64,000 nucleotides of DNA from Escherichia phage vB_EcoM-ZQ3, in sequence record MW630116.1; one strand, 5' to 3'. The notes under the pieces are model-generated. The model was not told where the DNA came from, searched no databases, and saw only the letters and a list, made by a program, of their open reading frames with translations. Positions 27,920 through 46,884 of this stretch are shown piece after piece (positions within the stretch are counted from its first letter, which is position 1; every line of letters begins with the position of its first letter). A program made the translations under genes and the position numbers.

Positions 27920-27994
27920 GGCCCTGTAGCTCAATGGGAGAGCTGTCAGCTCATAACTGATAGGTAGCTGGATCGAAACCAGCCAGGGTCACCA
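27920..27994 (+). tRNA. tRNA with CAU anticodon (Met, or Ile if lysidine-modified), CCA encoded
   Basis: Manual cloverleaf: acceptor GGCCCTG/CAGGGTC, D-stem GCTC/GAGC, anticodon loop CTCATAA, T-arm GCTGG-ATCGAAA-CCAGC, discriminator A, CCA. Confidence 0.8.
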
Positions 27995-28000
27995 AACAAA

Positions 28001-28072
28001 TGGTGCATCGTATAAAGGTTATTACGGGGAGCTGTTAACTCCTTTATCTTGGTTCGAGTCCAAGTGCGCCAG
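28001..28072 (+). tRNA. tRNA-Asn (GUU anticodon), no encoded CCA
   Basis: Acceptor TGGTGCA/TGCGCCA, anticodon stem GGGAG/CTCCT with loop CTGTTAA, T-arm CTTGG-TTCGAGT-CCAAG; 6 nt after the previous tRNA. Confidence 0.7.
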
Positions 28073-28117
28073 TAATTTAAACGAAGTAAATTAAGTGCTC
28101 TATCCAAATAATAAATA

Positions 28118-28136
28118 CTCCTATATTTTATAGGAG
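28118..28136 (+). promoter_or_regulatory. Hairpin sequestering the RBS of the downstream endonuclease gene
   Basis: Inverted repeat CTCCTATA-ttt-TATAGGAG; right arm is the SD 10 nt before the ATG at 28147. Confidence 0.5.
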
Positions 28137-28146
28137 ATAATTGGTA

Positions 28147-28812
28147 ATGAGCATTTGTAAACATTGTAATATGGAATTTGATATTTCTAATAAACCTAAA
28201 GGATGGATGGCTAACCACACTAGATGGTGTAAATCCAACCCTAAATTGGAATTGTATAAAGAAAGTTCTAAATCAGCCATTGCAGCAATGAATAAAGCAC
28301 GTATAGCTTCAGGTAATTTAAACCAGTATGTTGTATCTAAAAAGACTGGTGTCCCTGTAGTAATTTCGGAAGAGACTAGACAAAAATTGTCAGCCGCTTC
28401 ATTAGGTAGAGAACACTCTGAGGAATCTAGAATAAAAATATCTAATGCTCGGAAAAAATGGTTGAATGAAAACCCTGATAAACATCCTTGGAAGAAAAAT
28501 ACAAAATTTAAATCTGTGCCTTGTGAATTTTTGAAATCTAAATTAATAGAAAACGGAATTTCATTTATTGAAGAATACCAACCGGTTAAAAACCGAGCGT
28601 ATTGCACGGATATTGCTTTAATAGATAAAAAGATTATTATTGAAGTTAATGGAAACCAACATTACTCCAATCCTAAGAAAAAGATTTTGGCCCCTTATTA
28701 TAAAGAACGCCATGATATTATAAAATCATTAGGATGGGAAATATATGAACTTCATTATGCTGAAGTTTATAAAGAAGATATTGTAAATAATTTAATTGCC
28801 TCTATAGTGTAA
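28147..28812 (+). CDS. Putative free-standing homing endonuclease (N-terminal Cys/His motif, NUMOD3-like repeats, C-terminal Vsr/DUF559-like nuclease motif)
   Basis: CKHCN...HTRWC; ETRQKLSAASLGREHSEESRIKISNARKKW; C-terminal D..IIIEVNGNQHY..RHD...LGWEI; sits between tRNA genes and overlaps tRNA-Arg by 15 nt; no GIY-YIG motif. Confidence 0.6.
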   Translation: MSICKHCNMEFDISNKPKGWMANHTRWCKSNPKLELYKESSKSAIAAMNKARIASGNLNQYVVSKKTGVPVVISEETRQKLSAASLGREHSEESRIKISNARKKWLNENPDKHPWKKNTKFKSVPCEFLKSKLIENGISFIEEYQPVKNRAYCTDIALIDKKIIIEVNGNQHYSNPKKKILAPYYKERHDIIKSLGWEIYELHYAEVYKEDIVNNLIASIV

Positions 28813-28873
28813 TGGATAGCATATAATCGTTCTAAGGTTAATGGTGAGAGTTCAAATCTTTCTAGAGGCACCA
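28798..28873 (+). tRNA. tRNA-Arg (UCU anticodon), CCA encoded
   Basis: Acceptor GCCTCTA/TAGAGGC, D-stem GTGT/GCAT, anticodon loop GTTCTAA, T-arm GAGAG-TTCAAAT-CTTTC, discriminator A plus CCA. Confidence 0.8.
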
Positions 28874-43534: not shown

Positions 43535-43743
43535 ATATACATTATCCACATCCATATGACCCAAAGAATAAGGCAGTAATTATTCGTCAATGGGAACGCA
43601 TTTGTCGTACCAAATGTCCAATTAATAGTCCACATGATGTAGATAAAGACTACATCGGAACATTCGTTGAATATACTTTTATCGATAAGAAAGGCCGTAA
43701 ACAACATGTAGAAGAATATTGCTTAAAGGTGACATGGTTATGA
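43531..43743 (+). CDS. Hypothetical protein
   Basis: 70 aa; ATGA overlap. Confidence 0.45.
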   Translation: MNIHYPHPYDPKNKAVIIRQWERICRTKCPINSPHDVDKDYIGTFVEYTFIDKKGRKQHVEEYCLKVTWL

Positions 43744-43925
43744 GTTTAAGTAAAGAACAAAAAGACAGACTGTTTTCTCTTATTCACGAAGTTATGGATA
43801 AAAATAGTGAATTGGAAAAAGTTTGCGATGAATGCGGTCCTTTTAATACCGACGAATACGAAGAACTGTGTAAAGATTTCGACGATAAAGAACAAGAACT
43901 TATTGATTATATAAATTCCTTATGA
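43740..43925 (+). CDS. Hypothetical small acidic protein (paralog of the next ORF)
   Basis: 61 aa; shares an N-terminal pattern with 43922..44119. Confidence 0.45.
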   Translation: MSLSKEQKDRLFSLIHEVMDKNSELEKVCDECGPFNTDEYEELCKDFDDKEQELIDYINSL

Positions 43926-44119
43926 TTACTCGCGAACAAAAGAATGAAATACGATTTTTAATCAGCGAAATTATTAGTTTAGAACGAGATTTATCTTTTG
44001 AATTGGCTTCGGATTATGGAGATGCTGAAACATACTACGAATTAGTAAAATCTATCGATAAAGCTGAAAATGATTTAGAAACATATTTAGAAAATTTAAC
44101 TAAGGACTCTTATGGCTAG
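43922..44119 (+). CDS. Hypothetical small acidic protein
   Basis: 65 aa. Confidence 0.45.
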   Translation: MITREQKNEIRFLISEIISLERDLSFELASDYGDAETYYELVKSIDKAENDLETYLENLTKDSYG

Positions 44120-45248: not shown

Positions 45249-45254
45249 TTTAAT

Positions 45255-45283
45255 AGCCCCTTCCTTATGGTTGGGGCTTTTTT
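45255..45283 (+). terminator. Rho-independent terminator after rI
   Basis: AGCCCC...GGGGCT stem plus TTTTT. Confidence 0.6.
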
Positions 45284-45349
45284 GCATTTAGCAGTTTACT
45301 TCTCCTCAGGTTGTGTTATAGTAGTCCTTACTTACTAGAGGAGAACGTT

Positions 45350-45529
45350 ATGTCACGTAAAGAAAAAATTTCTAAGTTAATGTTTTTGATTGAAGAGTAC
45401 GCTAATGCGGTATCTGATTGGGAAAATGCTCATGGTTGCGAAGATGGAGACATCGACATTAACAGAGCTATGAAAAAGATGGCTGATACGCACACCGAAT
45501 TGCAAATGTATGTTAACGAGATTATGTGA
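45350..45529 (+). CDS. Hypothetical small protein
   Basis: 59 aa; GAGGAGAA RBS within a promoter cassette. Confidence 0.4.
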   Translation: MSRKEKISKLMFLIEEYANAVSDWENAHGCEDGDIDINRAMKKMADTHTELQMYVNEIM

Positions 45530-45536
45530 GGATATT

Positions 45537-45701
45537 ATGCTTTACGATTATACTGGAAAATCTGAAGACGGTGTACTTGAACTTTTACCTGAAAGCGCTG
45601 AAGATGATATGGTGGTGATATATTGTGTTGGTTGTCAATCAATGCATGATGAAATTTTTAAACGTGAACCAAGAAACTGTTGGCACAGGAGCATGAGATG
45701 A
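45537..45701 (+). CDS. Hypothetical small protein (paralog of 45793..46008)
   Basis: 54 aa; MLYDYTGKSEDGVLELLPE resembles MLYDPSGCSEDGVIVLEPE. Confidence 0.4.
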   Translation: MLYDYTGKSEDGVLELLPESAEDDMVVIYCVGCQSMHDEIFKREPRNCWHRSMR

Positions 45702-45793
45702 TTTATTATCTTGAACCTTGGGCTTGGTTAACAATGGCTGTAGGACCTGTTTTAATTGGTTTATTCTTTTCATGGTTAGCGAGGAAACTGTAA
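45698..45793 (+). CDS. Possible 31-aa hydrophobic micro-protein
   Basis: MIYYLEPWAWLTMAVGPVLIGLFFSWLARKL; ATGA and TAATG overlaps with both neighbours; below the ORF-track size cutoff. Confidence 0.3.
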   Translation: MIYYLEPWAWLTMAVGPVLIGLFFSWLARKL

Positions 45794-46008
45794 TGTTATA
45801 TGACCCAAGCGGTTGTTCTGAAGATGGTGTGATTGTTCTGGAGCCTGAGCATCCAGTTGGTGATGTATATCGCACCGTTGAAGTATGCGAATGTAATTTC
45901 GTTGAAGGTAATACTGGCGGAATTTCCATTGAGCAAGATGATGATGTTATTTACCTGGATGCAAGCCAAGTAGAAGCTCTTTATAGCATTTTAAAACATA
46001 ATCGGTAG
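45793..46008 (+). CDS. Hypothetical small protein
   Basis: 71 aa. Confidence 0.45.
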   Translation: MLYDPSGCSEDGVIVLEPEHPVGDVYRTVEVCECNFVEGNTGGISIEQDDDVIYLDASQVEALYSILKHNR

Positions 46009-46065
46009 TTTACGTCTTGGTAGGACTATGATATAGTAATCCTACCAAAACAAATGGAGAACAAA

Positions 46066-46176
46066 ATGAAACTTTTGCTTATCGCTTATGTTGTAGTACA
46101 ATACAATTATCCGATGTTTACTTATAACATGGTAAACGGCATAGTGAATCTTATTGAAACGAGTATGGTAAAATGA
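46066..46176 (+). CDS. Possible 36-aa hydrophobic micro-protein
   Basis: MKLLLIAYVVVQYNYPMFTYNMVNGIVNLIETSMVK; directly downstream of a promoter cassette. Confidence 0.3.
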   Translation: MKLLLIAYVVVQYNYPMFTYNMVNGIVNLIETSMVK

Positions 46177-46352
46177 CCCGTGAACAAGCTAATAAATTGA
46201 TGGACCTTATCCGTGACTTACGTGAAGCCGATTCAGATTTGAGTGATGTAGCTTATCATGCGGTAAATGATAACGGAGACTTTTATGAAAATCAGGTTGA
46301 TGCTTGCCAGAATGCTTTGGTGAATTTTGTTGAAACTTTAATTGGTGAATAA
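46173..46352 (+). CDS. Hypothetical small acidic protein
   Basis: 59 aa; ATGA overlap with the upstream micro-ORF. Confidence 0.35.
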   Translation: MTREQANKLMDLIRDLREADSDLSDVAYHAVNDNGDFYENQVDACQNALVNFVETLIGE

Positions 46353-46353
46353 T

Positions 46354-46884
46354 ATGAAAACTGTAATTGAAACAACCGAGTTGTTTGGTGATTTATGTAT
46401 CGAAAAACGTGGTTATGTGTATGTTCTGACACAAGAAGATGATGCTGCTACTATTCTTCCTATGGAACTGGACAAGATTTTGAAACTCAATCCACCAGGT
46501 CATGCATCTGTAATTAACATTAATGAAGACCTTCAAGTTCGTTTTTATCATGGACTTTATAGTGGGGTTAATATCGAAACTGAAGACGAATGTTTTTCTA
46601 TTAATAATTGGAAAACATTCGTCACTAAGGTGAAAGAATTCGTGGAATCTGAAACAGCCAAAAAGGCCAAACTTCAATGGGCTAAATGCCGTAATGCTTT
46701 TATTACAAATCCGGCCAACCCTGTCTCTACAACGGTCTTAGGCGTTAATCCTTCTTATGAAGATGGTGATGTCGTAGTTATTCGTCAAATTGATGACCTT
46801 CGTCAACATATCATTACATTAGACAAAGATGAAGCAGTTGCTCTTAAAGCTTATCTTGATTCTATTATCCCGACTTTGAAATAA
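46354..46884 (+). CDS. Hypothetical protein
   Basis: 176 aa. Confidence 0.55.
   Translation: MKTVIETTELFGDLCIEKRGYVYVLTQEDDAATILPMELDKILKLNPPGHASVININEDLQVRFYHGLYSGVNIETEDECFSINNWKTFVTKVKEFVESETAKKAKLQWAKCRNAFITNPANPVSTTVLGVNPSYEDGDVVVIRQIDDLRQHIITLDKDEAVALKAYLDSIIPTLK

Follow-up and report, generated by a model that had tools for sequence, protein, structure and literature searches.

Results

Gene content of the locus between rI and nrdC.11

The window analyzed here is the whole 64,000-nucleotide stretch of Escherichia phage vB_EcoM-ZQ3 (sequence record MW630116.1). It belongs to a Mosigvirus (RB69-like, T4-type), and the region described below is 96 to 99% identical to Mosigvirus genomes. 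The micro-ORFs lie between rI and nrdC.11, in the hyperplastic region, with tk, rI.1, rI, MobD.1, and NrdC.11 as neighbors. An Rfam scan of the window matched three tRNAs, all away from the locus, and gave no match at the micro-ORF locus itself. The features of the locus are as follows.

45255..45284, plus strand: intrinsic terminator-like hairpin and U-run after rI (AGCCCC...GGGGCUUUUUU; fold of -17.4 kcal/mol, z of -3.4)
45294..45349, plus strand: PeSL-type cassette 1 (promoter scan, fold, repeated family in the window)
45350..45529, plus strand: 59-aa DUF7438 protein resembling RB69 "MobD.2a," first gene of unit 1 (Pfam PF24219, E = 7e-16; phrog_2758 and phrog_653)
45537..45701, plus strand: 54-aa ORF, putative chimeric relic (sequence comparison; truncated and frameshifted variants)
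45615..46008, plus strand: putative horizontally acquired patch of ~394 bp (blastn)
45698..45793, plus strand: 31-aa predicted single-pass membrane peptide, phrog_12165 (conservation, pN/pS, Kyte-Doolittle)
45793..46008, plus strand: 71-aa acidic DUF7189 protein, full length, RB69 ORF107c family (Pfam PF23819, E = 1e-30; phrog_4844)
46006..46065, plus strand: PeSL-type cassette 2 (promoter scan, fold, repeated family, cassettes of relatives)
46066..46176, plus strand: 36-aa homolog of T4 MobD.2, phrog_3515 (E = 1e-20), first gene of unit 2
46173..46352, plus strand: 59-aa DUF7438 protein, T4 Tk.1-like (Pfam PF24219; RB69 annotation)
46354..46884, plus strand: 176-aa MobD.1 homolog, continuing unit 2 (Pfam T4_y05I_N and T4_y05I_C; neighborhood)

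All boundaries of the five ORFs between 45537 and 46352 were confirmed in the sequence, and their translations agree with those of an earlier sequence-only reading of this DNA. The 54-aa ORF starts at an ATG preceded by GAGGA (45528 to 45532), and its stop codon shares an ATGA (45698 to 45701) with the start of the 31-aa ORF. The stop of the latter and the start of the 71-aa ORF form a TAATG (45791 to 45795), with GAGGA 7 nt upstream, and the 71-aa ORF ends at a TAG (46006 to 46008). The 36-aa ORF starts at the ATG at 46066, downstream of GGAG (46056 to 46059), and shares an ATGA (46173 to 46176) with the 59-aa ORF, which ends at a TAA (46350 to 46352). The sequence-only reading described one chain linked by ATGA or TAATG overlaps. 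Three of the four junctions do overlap, but the fourth (46009 to 46065) is a 57-nt intergenic promoter/stem-loop.

ORF length by itself is no evidence of a gene here, as 57 ORFs reach 20 aa or more in these 4 kb, one of them an antisense ORF of 96 aa (45639 to 45929). The micro-ORFs exceed chance because of their occurrence in 105 phage records (31-aa ORF) and in 850 phage records from at least five genera (36-aa ORF), their frame-specific purifying selection, and their conserved Shine-Dalgarno (SD) sequences and start codons. In addition, a PHROG family was found for each of the five ORFs, and they are annotated in the genomes of close relatives. These observations support the conclusion that all five are genes, known before as hypothetical proteins, and not chance ORFs. 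Since an IMG/VR scan returned 12 loci, none of which is of the chimeric type described below, variation within this type was analyzed in 10 GenBank genomes.

The two DUF7438 ORFs, at 45350 and 46173, are paralogs of each other. The 46173 gene is variable and is destroyed by a deletion in PhAPEC2. The label "helicase loader" that it carries in PHROG and RefSeq is probably wrong.

Predicted promoter/stem-loop cassettes and transcription units

PeSLs (promoter-early stem-loops; Arbiol et al. 2010, PMC2839356) consist of a stop codon, a σ70-like early promoter, a stem-loop over the -10 element, and then an SD sequence and ATG (PMC2839356; PMC4122927). The two TG-extended GTTTAC...TATAGT sites of the scanned region are located in the intergenic gaps before and after unit 1, and both overlap stable stem-loops. 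In cassette 1, GTTTAC (45294 to 45299) is followed, with a 16-nt spacer, by TG-extended TATAGT at 45317 to 45322 (TTTACT-16-TATAGT, 45295 to 45322). The 5' arm of its stem, TTCTCCTC (45300 to 45307), pairs with the SD-containing GAGGAGAA (45338 to 45345) directly before the ATG at 45350. The arms alone fold less distinctively (z of -1.3) than they do together with the neighboring terminator (z of -3.4). In cassette 2, the TAG stop codon runs into GTTTAC (46008 to 46013), which is followed by an 18-nt spacer and TG-extended TATAGT at 46032 to 46037 (TTTACG-17-TATAGT, 46009 to 46037). A stem-loop at 46014 to 46051 (-15.7 kcal/mol, z of -3.2) straddles the -10 element and precedes the SD sequence of the 36-aa ORF. 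The counterpart of this cassette is found 57 nt upstream of mobD.2 in T4, FelixPlatter, RB69, and ESCO47. In the annotation of phage SA79RD, a terminator is placed at the hairpin after rI, an early promoter at cassette 1, and a terminator at cassette 2.

Both promoters fit the T4/PST consensus TTTACW-N17-TAYWAT, with spacers within the 16 to 18 nt that we required. Each cassette has its stem-loop between the upstream stop codon and the SD sequence and ATG, and the arrangement is repeated in the hyperplastic region: at least 12 GTTTAC...TGnTAnnnT cassettes are present on the plus strand between 25.7 and 50.2 kb of the window, with an SD sequence and ATG after each. Based on these features, the chain reads as two early transcription units, each headed by a predicted PeSL-type cassette. 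Unit 1 would run from the first DUF7438 gene through the chimeric relic ORF and the 31-aa membrane peptide to DUF7189, and unit 2 from MobD.2 (36 aa) through the Tk.1-like DUF7438 gene to MobD.1 and onward. The stop/start overlaps within each unit imply translational coupling. We infer these promoter, terminator, and coupling functions from sequence and from what is known of T4 and RB49; the T4 homologs mobD.2, mobD.1, and tk.1 are represented in early RNA.

Chimeric structure of the 54-aa ORF

The sequence-only reading treated the products of the 45537 and 45793 ORFs as paralogs. They are indeed of common descent in the first ~26 residues, but the 45537 product's C-terminal half is unrelated and derives from a zinc finger. 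The resident DUF7189 gene supplied its 5' end as codons 1 to 26 (45537 to 45614), and a TraR/DksA-type C4 zinc-finger gene, of which only the second CxxC is left, supplied its 3' end as codons 27 to 54 (45615 to 45698). The N-terminal 24 aa are identical to those of an intact 68-aa gene of phage F2, with codons 25 and 26 following after a one-codon indel. No residue of the C-terminal 28 aa differs from the C terminus of an 85-aa zf-dskA_traR protein in dhabil, Yersinia P8, and VR20, and one differs from the JS98 protein. PF01258 and PF23819 proteins are both retrieved when the 54-aa sequence is used as a protein query.

The domain matches give the same picture. The 71-aa ORF matches PF23819 with 106 bits (cutoff, 27) over profile positions 1 to 68, which makes it a full-length DUF7189 protein. 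The 54-aa ORF matches this Pfam profile over positions 1 to 31 only (35 bits) and phrog_4844 over positions 1 to 35, so it would be classed as a DUF7189 fragment and not as a full member. The donor 85-aa protein matches PF01258 with 38 bits (cutoff, 24.9), whereas the 54-aa ORF, in which CVGC is the sole CxxC, has no match to PF01258 at E ≤ 1. Judging from these alignments, the 45537 product appears to be a recombination chimera rather than a true paralog.

Segment-wise blastn shows a resident-donor-resident mosaic. The ~394-bp patch, which comprises what is left of the zinc-finger gene's 3' end, the gene for the 31-aa peptide, and a second, Gaprivervirus-type DUF7189 allele, is 94.4% identical to VR20 (L008) and 92% identical to VR25 and Yersinia P8, while both of its flanks are 93 to 98.5% identical to F2/RB69-type Mosigvirus. 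The junction between the chimera's DUF7189 part and the zinc-finger sequence could be resolved at 45614|45615. In the exchange that we propose, ~394 bp from a Gaprivervirus/Dhakavirus-like phage with the gene order traR-like zinc finger, 31-aa peptide, DUF7189 would have taken the place of the middle part of the resident DUF7189 gene. The left crossover would have occurred in a 12-nt in-frame microhomology, joining 26 resident codons to the last 28 zinc-finger codons, and the right crossover in the conserved 3' end of DUF7189. The crossover points are displaced in JN02 and SA79RD, which indicates that the exchange recurred. The chimeric form is in the minority (~20 of 237 records), and it is from this distribution, rather than from a rooted phylogeny, that transfer from a Gaprivervirus-like phage to Mosigvirus is the suggested direction.

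Paralogy, as first proposed, would imply that the two genes beginning with MLYD arose by local tandem duplication in this phage lineage and then diverged. The copies do start only 256 nt apart and have 72% identity over a 32-nt repeat, D1, near their 5' ends (45561 to 45592 versus 45817 to 45848). Nevertheless, we give this history almost no credence. The segment between the copies, together with the second copy itself, is 92 to 94% identical to Gaprivervirus/Yersinia phage DNA and matches the gene order there; the RB69/F2-type phages that both flanks match carry a single DUF7189 copy; and the first copy ends in zinc-finger sequence and not in diverged DUF7189. Tandem duplication is thus already contradicted by the segment-wise blastn.

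The 54-aa ORF appears to be decaying under relaxed constraint. In PhAPEC2 it has a nonsense mutation at codon 48; the other variants among the 10 genomes are H36R, M25T, IY>MF substitutions, and an additional D; and truncated forms of 49 and 36 aa occur in metagenomes. It may nonetheless have a residual function, because 9 of 10 close relatives have it intact, with the N-terminal motif MLYDxxGxSEDG retained. A stronger proposal is that the ORF is a functional new gene, whose disordered DUF7189 motif and half zinc finger act as a decoy or modulator of the DUF7189 partner. This would fit with its good SD sequence, with the N-terminal 20 to 26 residues being nearly invariant across the DUF7189 family and predicted to be disordered, as for a linear interaction motif, and with P0011, in which the same N terminus is joined to a third, unrelated acidic C terminus. 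However, among the ~10 near-identical genomes most changes to the ORF alter the protein (by eye, ~5 amino acid changes, one of them nonsense, and one codon indel, against ~3 synonymous changes). Other copies of the ORF are truncated or frameshifted, the C4 finger has lost one of its two CxxC pairs, the TraR N-terminal helix is missing, and the ORF was not called by the HX01 and AV110 annotators. We therefore consider a functional new gene unlikely and favor a relic. Since the SD sequence and ATGA start of the 31-aa peptide lie inside the last zinc-finger codons, the relic might now serve mainly as a translated leader that delivers ribosomes to the peptide or permits their access to it.

The AF2 model of the full-length DUF7189 protein has a disordered N terminus, three strands, and a C-terminal helix, at a pLDDT of only 67.6, and a Foldseek search of the PDB with this low-confidence model gave nothing below E = 1. 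Homology of DUF7189 to the C-terminal domain of MobD.1, an idea that came from a weak Pfam match (E = 0.12) and from DNA repeat D1, is unsupported (hhalign E = 0.13; probability, 0.4%).

Conservation of the 31-aa and 36-aa peptides

Both micro-ORF products had been described as hydrophobic peptides. By the criterion that we used for a single-pass membrane protein (~19 residues with a mean Kyte-Doolittle value of ≥1.6 and flanking basic residues), this description suits the 31-aa peptide, which has a GRAVY of 1.04, a best 19-residue window of 1.76 (residues 10 to 28), and a C-terminal RK. The 36-aa peptide is hydrophobic (GRAVY of 0.77), but its best window, 1.04, is below the transmembrane threshold. 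Prediction of the 31-aa product as a single-pass membrane peptide is credible from its hydrophobicity; it would sit in the inner membrane, its basic C terminus (ARKL) on the cytoplasmic side.

The SD sequence of the 31-aa ORF (AGGAG, 45687 to 45691) is 6 nt upstream of the start codon, inside the upstream ORF. This SD sequence and the ATG are kept in three contexts: downstream of a full zinc-finger gene, in the chimera, and where the zinc-finger gene is deleted (L015). The frame is uninterrupted in 103 of the 105 records. Its pN/pS is 0.24, versus 0.38 and 0.72 in the other frames, a comparison that rests on 9 distinct sequences, and its variable sites are distributed 8/4/10 over the codon positions, without a strong third-position bias. 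Except for W26R (dhabil) and L11S (Yersinia P8), the substitutions are hydrophobic to hydrophobic or conservative. As for the origin of the gene, alignment shows a clean ~92-nt indel with no detectable source sequence. Derivation from duplicated flanking sequence was considered and rejected, as repeat D3 and the similar first codons are only short 72% matches.

The 36-aa ORF belongs to the MobD.2 family both by similarity to the T4 protein, with which it is 64.7% identical in the alignment, and by conserved position. The family has an invariant core, VQYNYPMFTYNxVN, across Tequatro-, Mosig-, Winkler-, Jiaoda-, and Karamvirus. Compared with ESCO47 and T4, pS is 0.65 to 0.8 and pN is 0.10 to 0.19, which is a pN/pS of 0.16 to 0.25. 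Among the 10 close relatives, the amino acid sequence is identical in all 10, and 1 of 111 nt of the gene is variable versus 11 of 57 nt of the neighboring cassette. An exhaustive HMMER search of 1.84 billion representatives gave only 7 clusters, of which six are stand-alone peptides of 34 to 50 aa that share the motif and one is a 124-aa read-through fusion.

One alternative is that the 31-aa frame, the 36-aa frame, or both give no functional peptide and that their conservation reflects recent common descent or nucleic acid constraints, such as mRNA structure, spacing, or use as a recombination substrate. Proteomics of T4 did not detect the MobD.2 protein, the 36-aa gene has almost no synonymous variation among close relatives, the codon-position pattern of the 31-aa ORF is weak, and chance ORFs of such size are abundant at the locus. 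Shotgun mass spectrometry, however, routinely misses short hydrophobic peptides. Furthermore, between genera mobD.2 keeps an invariant peptide motif although its synonymous sites are near saturation, pN/pS is 0.7 to 4.9 in the other two frames, and the 31-aa ORF has kept its frame, SD sequence, and start through mostly conservative substitutions and a change of upstream context. These observations make the alternative very unlikely, and we conclude that the 31-aa peptide, DUF7189, and MobD.2 are genes under purifying selection. Their products would be nonessential, early-expressed accessory proteins.

The position of mobD.2 suggests another alternative, that it encodes a cis-acting leader peptide and that translation of QYNYPMFTYN regulates the overlapping downstream gene, without action in trans. 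In T4, FelixPlatter, RB69, ESCO47, and the window, mobD.2 is the first cistron, ~57 nt after the early promoter, and Kc304 is similar. Its stop codon always overlaps or abuts the next start, even though the next gene differs: mobD.1 in T4, the tk.1-like gene in the window, and a traR-like zinc-finger gene in Kc304, JY1, and Pet-CM3-4. In JY1 and Pet-CM3-4, however, mobD.2 lies inside a transcription unit and has no promoter of its own. The constraint also spans all 34 to 36 residues, including the hydrophobic N terminus and the amphipathic C terminus, and no known arrest motif was recognized in MobD.2. We regard a leader function as highly improbable.

Discussion

The whole of these observations is probably explained by an ordinary mosaic stretch that carries two early polycistronic units and in which the apparent paralogy is a recombination scar. 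The locus is, in this sense, a well-explained mosaic of a familiar type. Its value is as a base-resolved case of intergenus exchange in a T4-type hyperplastic region, by in-frame intragenic microhomology and not by way of PeSL cassettes, in which the micro-gene, because its ribosome-binding site is embedded in the upstream gene, can move only together with a fragment of that gene.

There are also consequences for annotation. It would be right to mark the 54-aa ORF as the relic of a gene fusion and not as a family member. Both the 31-aa gene and the 36-aa gene are genuine yet frequently unannotated, the former in AV110, JN02, and HX01 and the latter in RB69. The labels "helicase loader" and "molybdopterin... 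MobD" in the region are probably propagated errors.

That the small peptides might be host-takeover or superinfection factors, as the sequence-only reading proposed, is a guess. Neither the 31-aa nor the 36-aa peptide has a match among the antidefense, defense, and toxin families searched in PADLOC, Pfam, NCBIfam, and the PDB. A more specific version, which we put forward as a speculation more doubtful than probable, is that the 31-aa peptide and DUF7189 as a pair, and MobD.2 separately, are mobile early host-directed effectors (e.g., envelope or defense targeting), with QYNYPMFTYN marking a new family of takeover peptides with a conserved host target. If this is true, the peptide and DUF7189 genes are exchanged together among Tevenvirinae genera, and the pair's own ribosome-binding site travels with them in the last codons of the preceding gene. 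MobD.2 is the best candidate for follow-up, since its conservation reaches from T4 to phages of Klebsiella and Cronobacter and it can be examined in T4 itself.

Several known systems can be compared with this locus. The cassettes resemble PeSLs in being present in many copies in a variable region and in flanking small uncharacterized genes that differ between close relatives; the likeness is one of sequence and fold, with promoter and terminator activity predicted here. In the ORFan shuffling described for T4-type hyperplastic regions (Comeau et al. 2014, PMC4122927), PeSL-mediated exchange would place the breakpoints in the cassettes. In contrast, both junctions here (45614|45615 and ~45967 to 46008) are inside coding sequence.

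The donor zinc-finger gene (85 aa; JS98, VR20, and Yersinia P8) resembles F TraR and lambda Orf73 in that it matches zf-dskA_traR and has a CxxC-17-CxxC arrangement. The N-terminal helix of TraR carries an essential DxxDxA motif (Gopalkrishnan et al. 2022, PMC9239242). The window keeps only the second CxxC and the C-terminal tail, and the 54-aa ORF thus lacks both the paired CxxC-17-CxxC and the DxxDxA helix that define a TraR/DksA protein. With the N-terminal helix and first CxxC gone, TraR-like action of the 54-aa product on RNA polymerase would not be expected.

T4 MobD.2 (NP_049712, 34 aa) is 62 to 65% identical to the 36-aa peptide, with a common motif, the same cassette spacing, and the same neighborhood (rI...mobD.1...nrdC.11). 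At this position, however, T4 lacks DUF7189, the 31-aa peptide, and a traR-like gene, and T4 mobD.2 overlaps mobD.1 directly, whereas in the window the Tk.1-like DUF7438 gene lies between them.

A functional comparison can be made with phage AV110, the subject of the sole Mosigvirus early-gene toxicity screen that we found. The 54-aa chimera and the 31-aa and 36-aa ORFs, each shorter than 60 aa, are unannotated in AV110 and so cannot have been in that screen. By accession order, the AV110 counterpart of this region would be gp198 to gp201, none of which seems to be among the six toxic genes. AV110 Emp, an early protein of 109 aa that perturbs the host envelope, binds MreBCD (bioRxiv 10.64898/2026.09.14.751387). 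It is unrelated to the micro-ORFs, with which it has no sequence similarity, and is larger, soluble, and encoded beside motA. What it shares with them is the phage genus and the class of small, early, uncharacterized genes, and it shows that such genes can hit specific host targets.

Layout of the five small ORFs

All five plus-strand ORFs lie exactly where the sequence-only reading had placed them (sequence read, ORF scan, and translation).

Small ORFs of the locus
45537-45701, +, 54-aa ORF; terminal ATGA contains the start of the 31-aa ORF
45698-45793, +, 31-aa ORF; terminal TAATG contains the start of the 71-aa ORF
45793-46008, +, 71-aa ORF, DUF7189 (Pfam); 57-nt gap before the 36-aa ORF
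46066-46176, +, 36-aa ORF, MobD.2; terminal ATGA contains the start of the 59-aa ORF
46173-46352, +, 59-aa ORF, DUF7438 (Pfam)

Pfam also places the 45350 ORF in DUF7438 and the 176-aa ORF in T4_y05I_N and T4_y05I_C (MobD.1). Every start among the five except 46173 has a recognizable Shine-Dalgarno (SD) sequence 5 to 7 nt 5' of it. PHROG families already exist for all five, and the 31-aa and 36-aa peptides have no match in Pfam, NCBIfam, PADLOC, or PDB. The locus is 96 to 99% identical to Mosigvirus (RB69-like) coliphages (e.g., PNJ-6, DCP548, ST0, and HX01) and is flanked by rI on one side and by MobD.1, membrane protein, and NrdC.11 genes on the other; the corresponding place in T4 is the tk-nrdC "mobD" hyperplastic region. 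Because this AT-rich DNA has 57 ORFs of ≥20 aa within 4 kb, one of them an antisense ORF of 96 aa (ORF scan), length by itself is uninformative, and the gene status of small ORFs must therefore come from comparative evidence.

The 54-aa ORF is an inter-genus chimera

The 45537 and 45793 products had been taken for paralogs, but protein searches and segment-wise blastn show instead that the former is a chimera whose C-terminal 28 aa come from a zinc-finger gene. At this position the majority of related phages, RB69 and F2 among them, have just one DUF7189 gene, of 68 aa; the long form of the window is limited to ~20 of 237 matching records. The first 24 residues are exactly those of the F2 protein, with residues 25 and 26 following after a one-codon indel. 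The final 28 (VIYCVGCQSMHDEIFKREPRNCWHRSMR) are shared without change with the C terminus of an 85-aa zf-dskA_traR protein of phages dhabil, VR20, and Yersinia P8 and differ from JS98 at one position (V to I); in a protein database search the 54-aa query retrieves both parental families. In those phages the order is zinc finger, 31-aa peptide (ATGA overlap), and DUF7189 (TAATG overlap); both overlaps recur in the window.

Best matches by segment-wise blastn
45249-45614, F2/RB69-type Mosigvirus, 94-97%
45615-46008, Gaprivervirus VR20, 94.4%; VR25, VR26, and Yersinia P8, 91-92%
46009-46352, F2/RB69-type Mosigvirus, 93-98.5%

This resident/donor/resident mosaic excludes a local tandem duplication as the source of the two copies. 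The left junction of the exchanged patch (45614|45615) falls between codons 26 and 27, within a 12-nt in-frame patch where the parents are identical at 9 of 12 positions, and the right junction lies within the conserved 3' end of DUF7189. The junction in phage JN02 is ~9 nt further right, and the second copy in SA79RD ends in an RB69-type C terminus, indicating that exchange at this locus has recurred.

Constraint on the small ORFs

The 54-aa chimeric ORF looks to be under no constraint. Among 10 near-identical genomes, a by-eye count from the variable-site list gives ~5 amino acid-changing substitutions (one of them creating a stop at codon 48) and a codon indel versus ~3 synonymous changes, and truncated forms of 49 and 36 aa occur elsewhere. 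Of the C4 finger a single CxxC is left, and the N-terminal helix essential for TraR function (PMC9239242) is missing. In PhAPEC2 (2374-2490), a ~65- to 76-nt internal deletion destroys the 59-aa Tk.1-like gene and the chimeric ORF also has a nonsense mutation; both are therefore dispensable in that phage.

Of 105 phage records, 103 have the 31-aa ORF without interruption, with a pN/pS of 0.24 in frame versus 0.38 and 0.72 out of frame. The changes are mostly hydrophobic-conservative, with the exceptions of W26R (dhabil) and L11S (Yersinia P8). As proposed from the sequence, the peptide is hydrophobic (best 19-residue Kyte-Doolittle window, 1.76), and its C terminus is basic. The ORF keeps its SD and start in three contexts: downstream of a whole zinc-finger gene, downstream of the chimera, and where the zinc-finger gene is deleted (locus L015). 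In another lineage (loci L012 to L014) DUF7189 follows the zinc finger without the peptide, and alignment of their positions 2241-2704 with 1747-2293 of locus L005 shows the peptide gene as a clean ~92-nt indel directly after the ATGA joining zinc-finger stop and DUF7189 start. The insert captures the original start codon and gives DUF7189 a new SD and ATG; a search for its source found no source sequence.

MobD.2, found in 850 records, keeps the core VQY[NH][YN]P[ML]FTYN[LMF]VN across five genera (alignment). Its pN/pS is 0.16 to 0.25 at a pS of 0.65 to 0.8, versus 0.7 to 4.9 in other frames, and its amino acid sequence is identical in all 10 close relatives, whereas 11 of the adjoining cassette's 57 positions are variable. 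It too had been called hydrophobic; its best window (1.04) is under the classical transmembrane threshold. An exhaustive HMMER search returned only seven clusters, six of stand-alone proteins of 34 to 50 aa and one a 124-aa read-through fusion with DUF7189. In that natural fusion (public protein P0012), which crosses the promoter cassette, the stop codon has become Gln; at 45793-46176 of the window the two genes share a reading frame, at a distance of 273 nt.

In Winkler-, Jiaoda-, and Karamvirus, a traR-like zinc-finger gene, 46 to 48% identical to the JS98 protein in the three phages listed, directly follows the MobD.2 homolog with stop and start overlapping.

MobD.2 homolog plus traR-like gene
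Kosakonia Kc304, 1177-1574
Klebsiella JY1, 1195-1565
Cronobacter Pet-CM3-4, 1186-1559

MobD.2, the zinc finger, the 31-aa peptide, and DUF7189 are thus recurrent neighbors, permuted across genera.

Predicted promoter/stem-loop cassettes divide the locus

The five genes had been described as one linked chain. The overlaps are real, but the gap at 46009-46065 holds a predicted promoter cassette that would split the chain into two units. A promoter scan found two sites in the scanned region, TG-extended GTTTAC-N16/17-TATAGT at 45295-45322 and 46009-46037, which lie in the two intergenic gaps flanking the first unit; a stem-loop overlaps each (RNA fold). Both cassettes fit the description of the PeSLs (promoter-early stem-loops) of T4-type hyperplastic regions (PMC2839356, PMC4122927).

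PeSL-like cassettes, + strand of the window, at least 12 copies (first-hexamer starts)
25738, 26093, 26425, 30294, 33949, 35241, 38536, 39038, 41665, 45295, 46009, 50178

Structurally they are of two types. One has a stem that straddles the -10 ("gataggacta...tagtcctatc"). The other has, upstream of the -10, a 5' arm ("ttctcctc") whose partner is the SD ("gaggagaa") of the downstream gene, a pairing that would block translation of read-through transcripts only. In the first cassette the 5' arm TTCTCCTC lies between the -35 and -10 and base-pairs with the 45350 gene's SD, so that this SD would be masked only in read-through RNA and exposed in RNA from the promoter of the cassette itself. The second cassette is kept with MobD.2, in the same arrangement 57 nt 5' of mobD.2 in T4, FelixPlatter, RB69, and ESCO47. 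T4 omics data class the RNAs of mobD.2, mobD.1, mobD.3, and tk.1 as early; no MobD.2 protein was detected in them.

Other features of the window

The AF2 model of DUF7189 (mean pLDDT, 67.6) has a disordered conserved N terminus, three strands, and a C-terminal helix, with no structural neighbor in PDB (Foldseek). A relationship to the MobD.1 C-terminal domain was rejected as not significant (Pfam E, 0.12; hhalign E, 0.13); the weak similarity links 45561-45592 and 45817-45848 on one side to 46756-46787 on the other ("SEDGVIVL..." versus "YEDGDVVVI..."; "LDASQVEALYSIL" versus "LDKDEAVALKAYL"). At least four DUF7438-like paralogs of ~60 to 68 aa (Tk.1/Tk.2/MobD.2a/MobD.3-like helical proteins) are dispersed in the region; blastp with the 59-aa protein finds the 43922 ORF (E, 2e-6) and the 43719 ORF (E, 5e-5).

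DUF7438-like paralogs
43719-43925
43922-44119
45350-45529
46173-46352

Public product names at 46173-46352 and 46354-46884, and in NC_018855, NC_004928, and PP693301, look like propagated errors: for example, the 59-aa DUF7438 protein is called "helicase loader," NrdC.11 is called "thioredoxin," and MobD.1-region ORFs are called [quoted passage not shown] and "thymidine kinase." At 27920-28873, the genes for tRNAs Met-CAT, Asn-GTT, and Arg-TCT form a three-gene cluster typical of T4-type phages.

Proposed working and comparison with known systems

The comparisons establish that the locus is of mosaic origin, how its ORFs are conserved, and how the cassettes are built. We propose that two early mRNAs are produced, that translation would be coupled through the stop/start overlaps, and that the 31-aa peptide may be inserted in the inner membrane. 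As the sequence-only reading suggested, the small hydrophobic peptides might be host-takeover or superinfection factors. The relic 54-aa ORF would serve at most as a translated leader, probably persisting because the peptide's ribosome-binding site sits in its last codons. The one relevant functional screen, in Mosigvirus AV110, took in 45 early proteins (bioRxiv 10.64898/2026.09.14.751387); the three ORFs of <60 aa are missing from the AV110 annotation and therefore cannot have been in it.

Taken singly, the genes are already on record as hypothetical proteins, and the annotation of MobD.2 as a T4 ORF goes back decades. Three points appear to be undescribed: the fusion origin of the 54-aa ORF, the patch exchanged between genera, and the use of intragenic microhomology instead of the cassettes. 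In its organization the locus matches T4-type hyperplastic regions that have PeSL cassettes, and it is a modest addition to the known picture of such regions.
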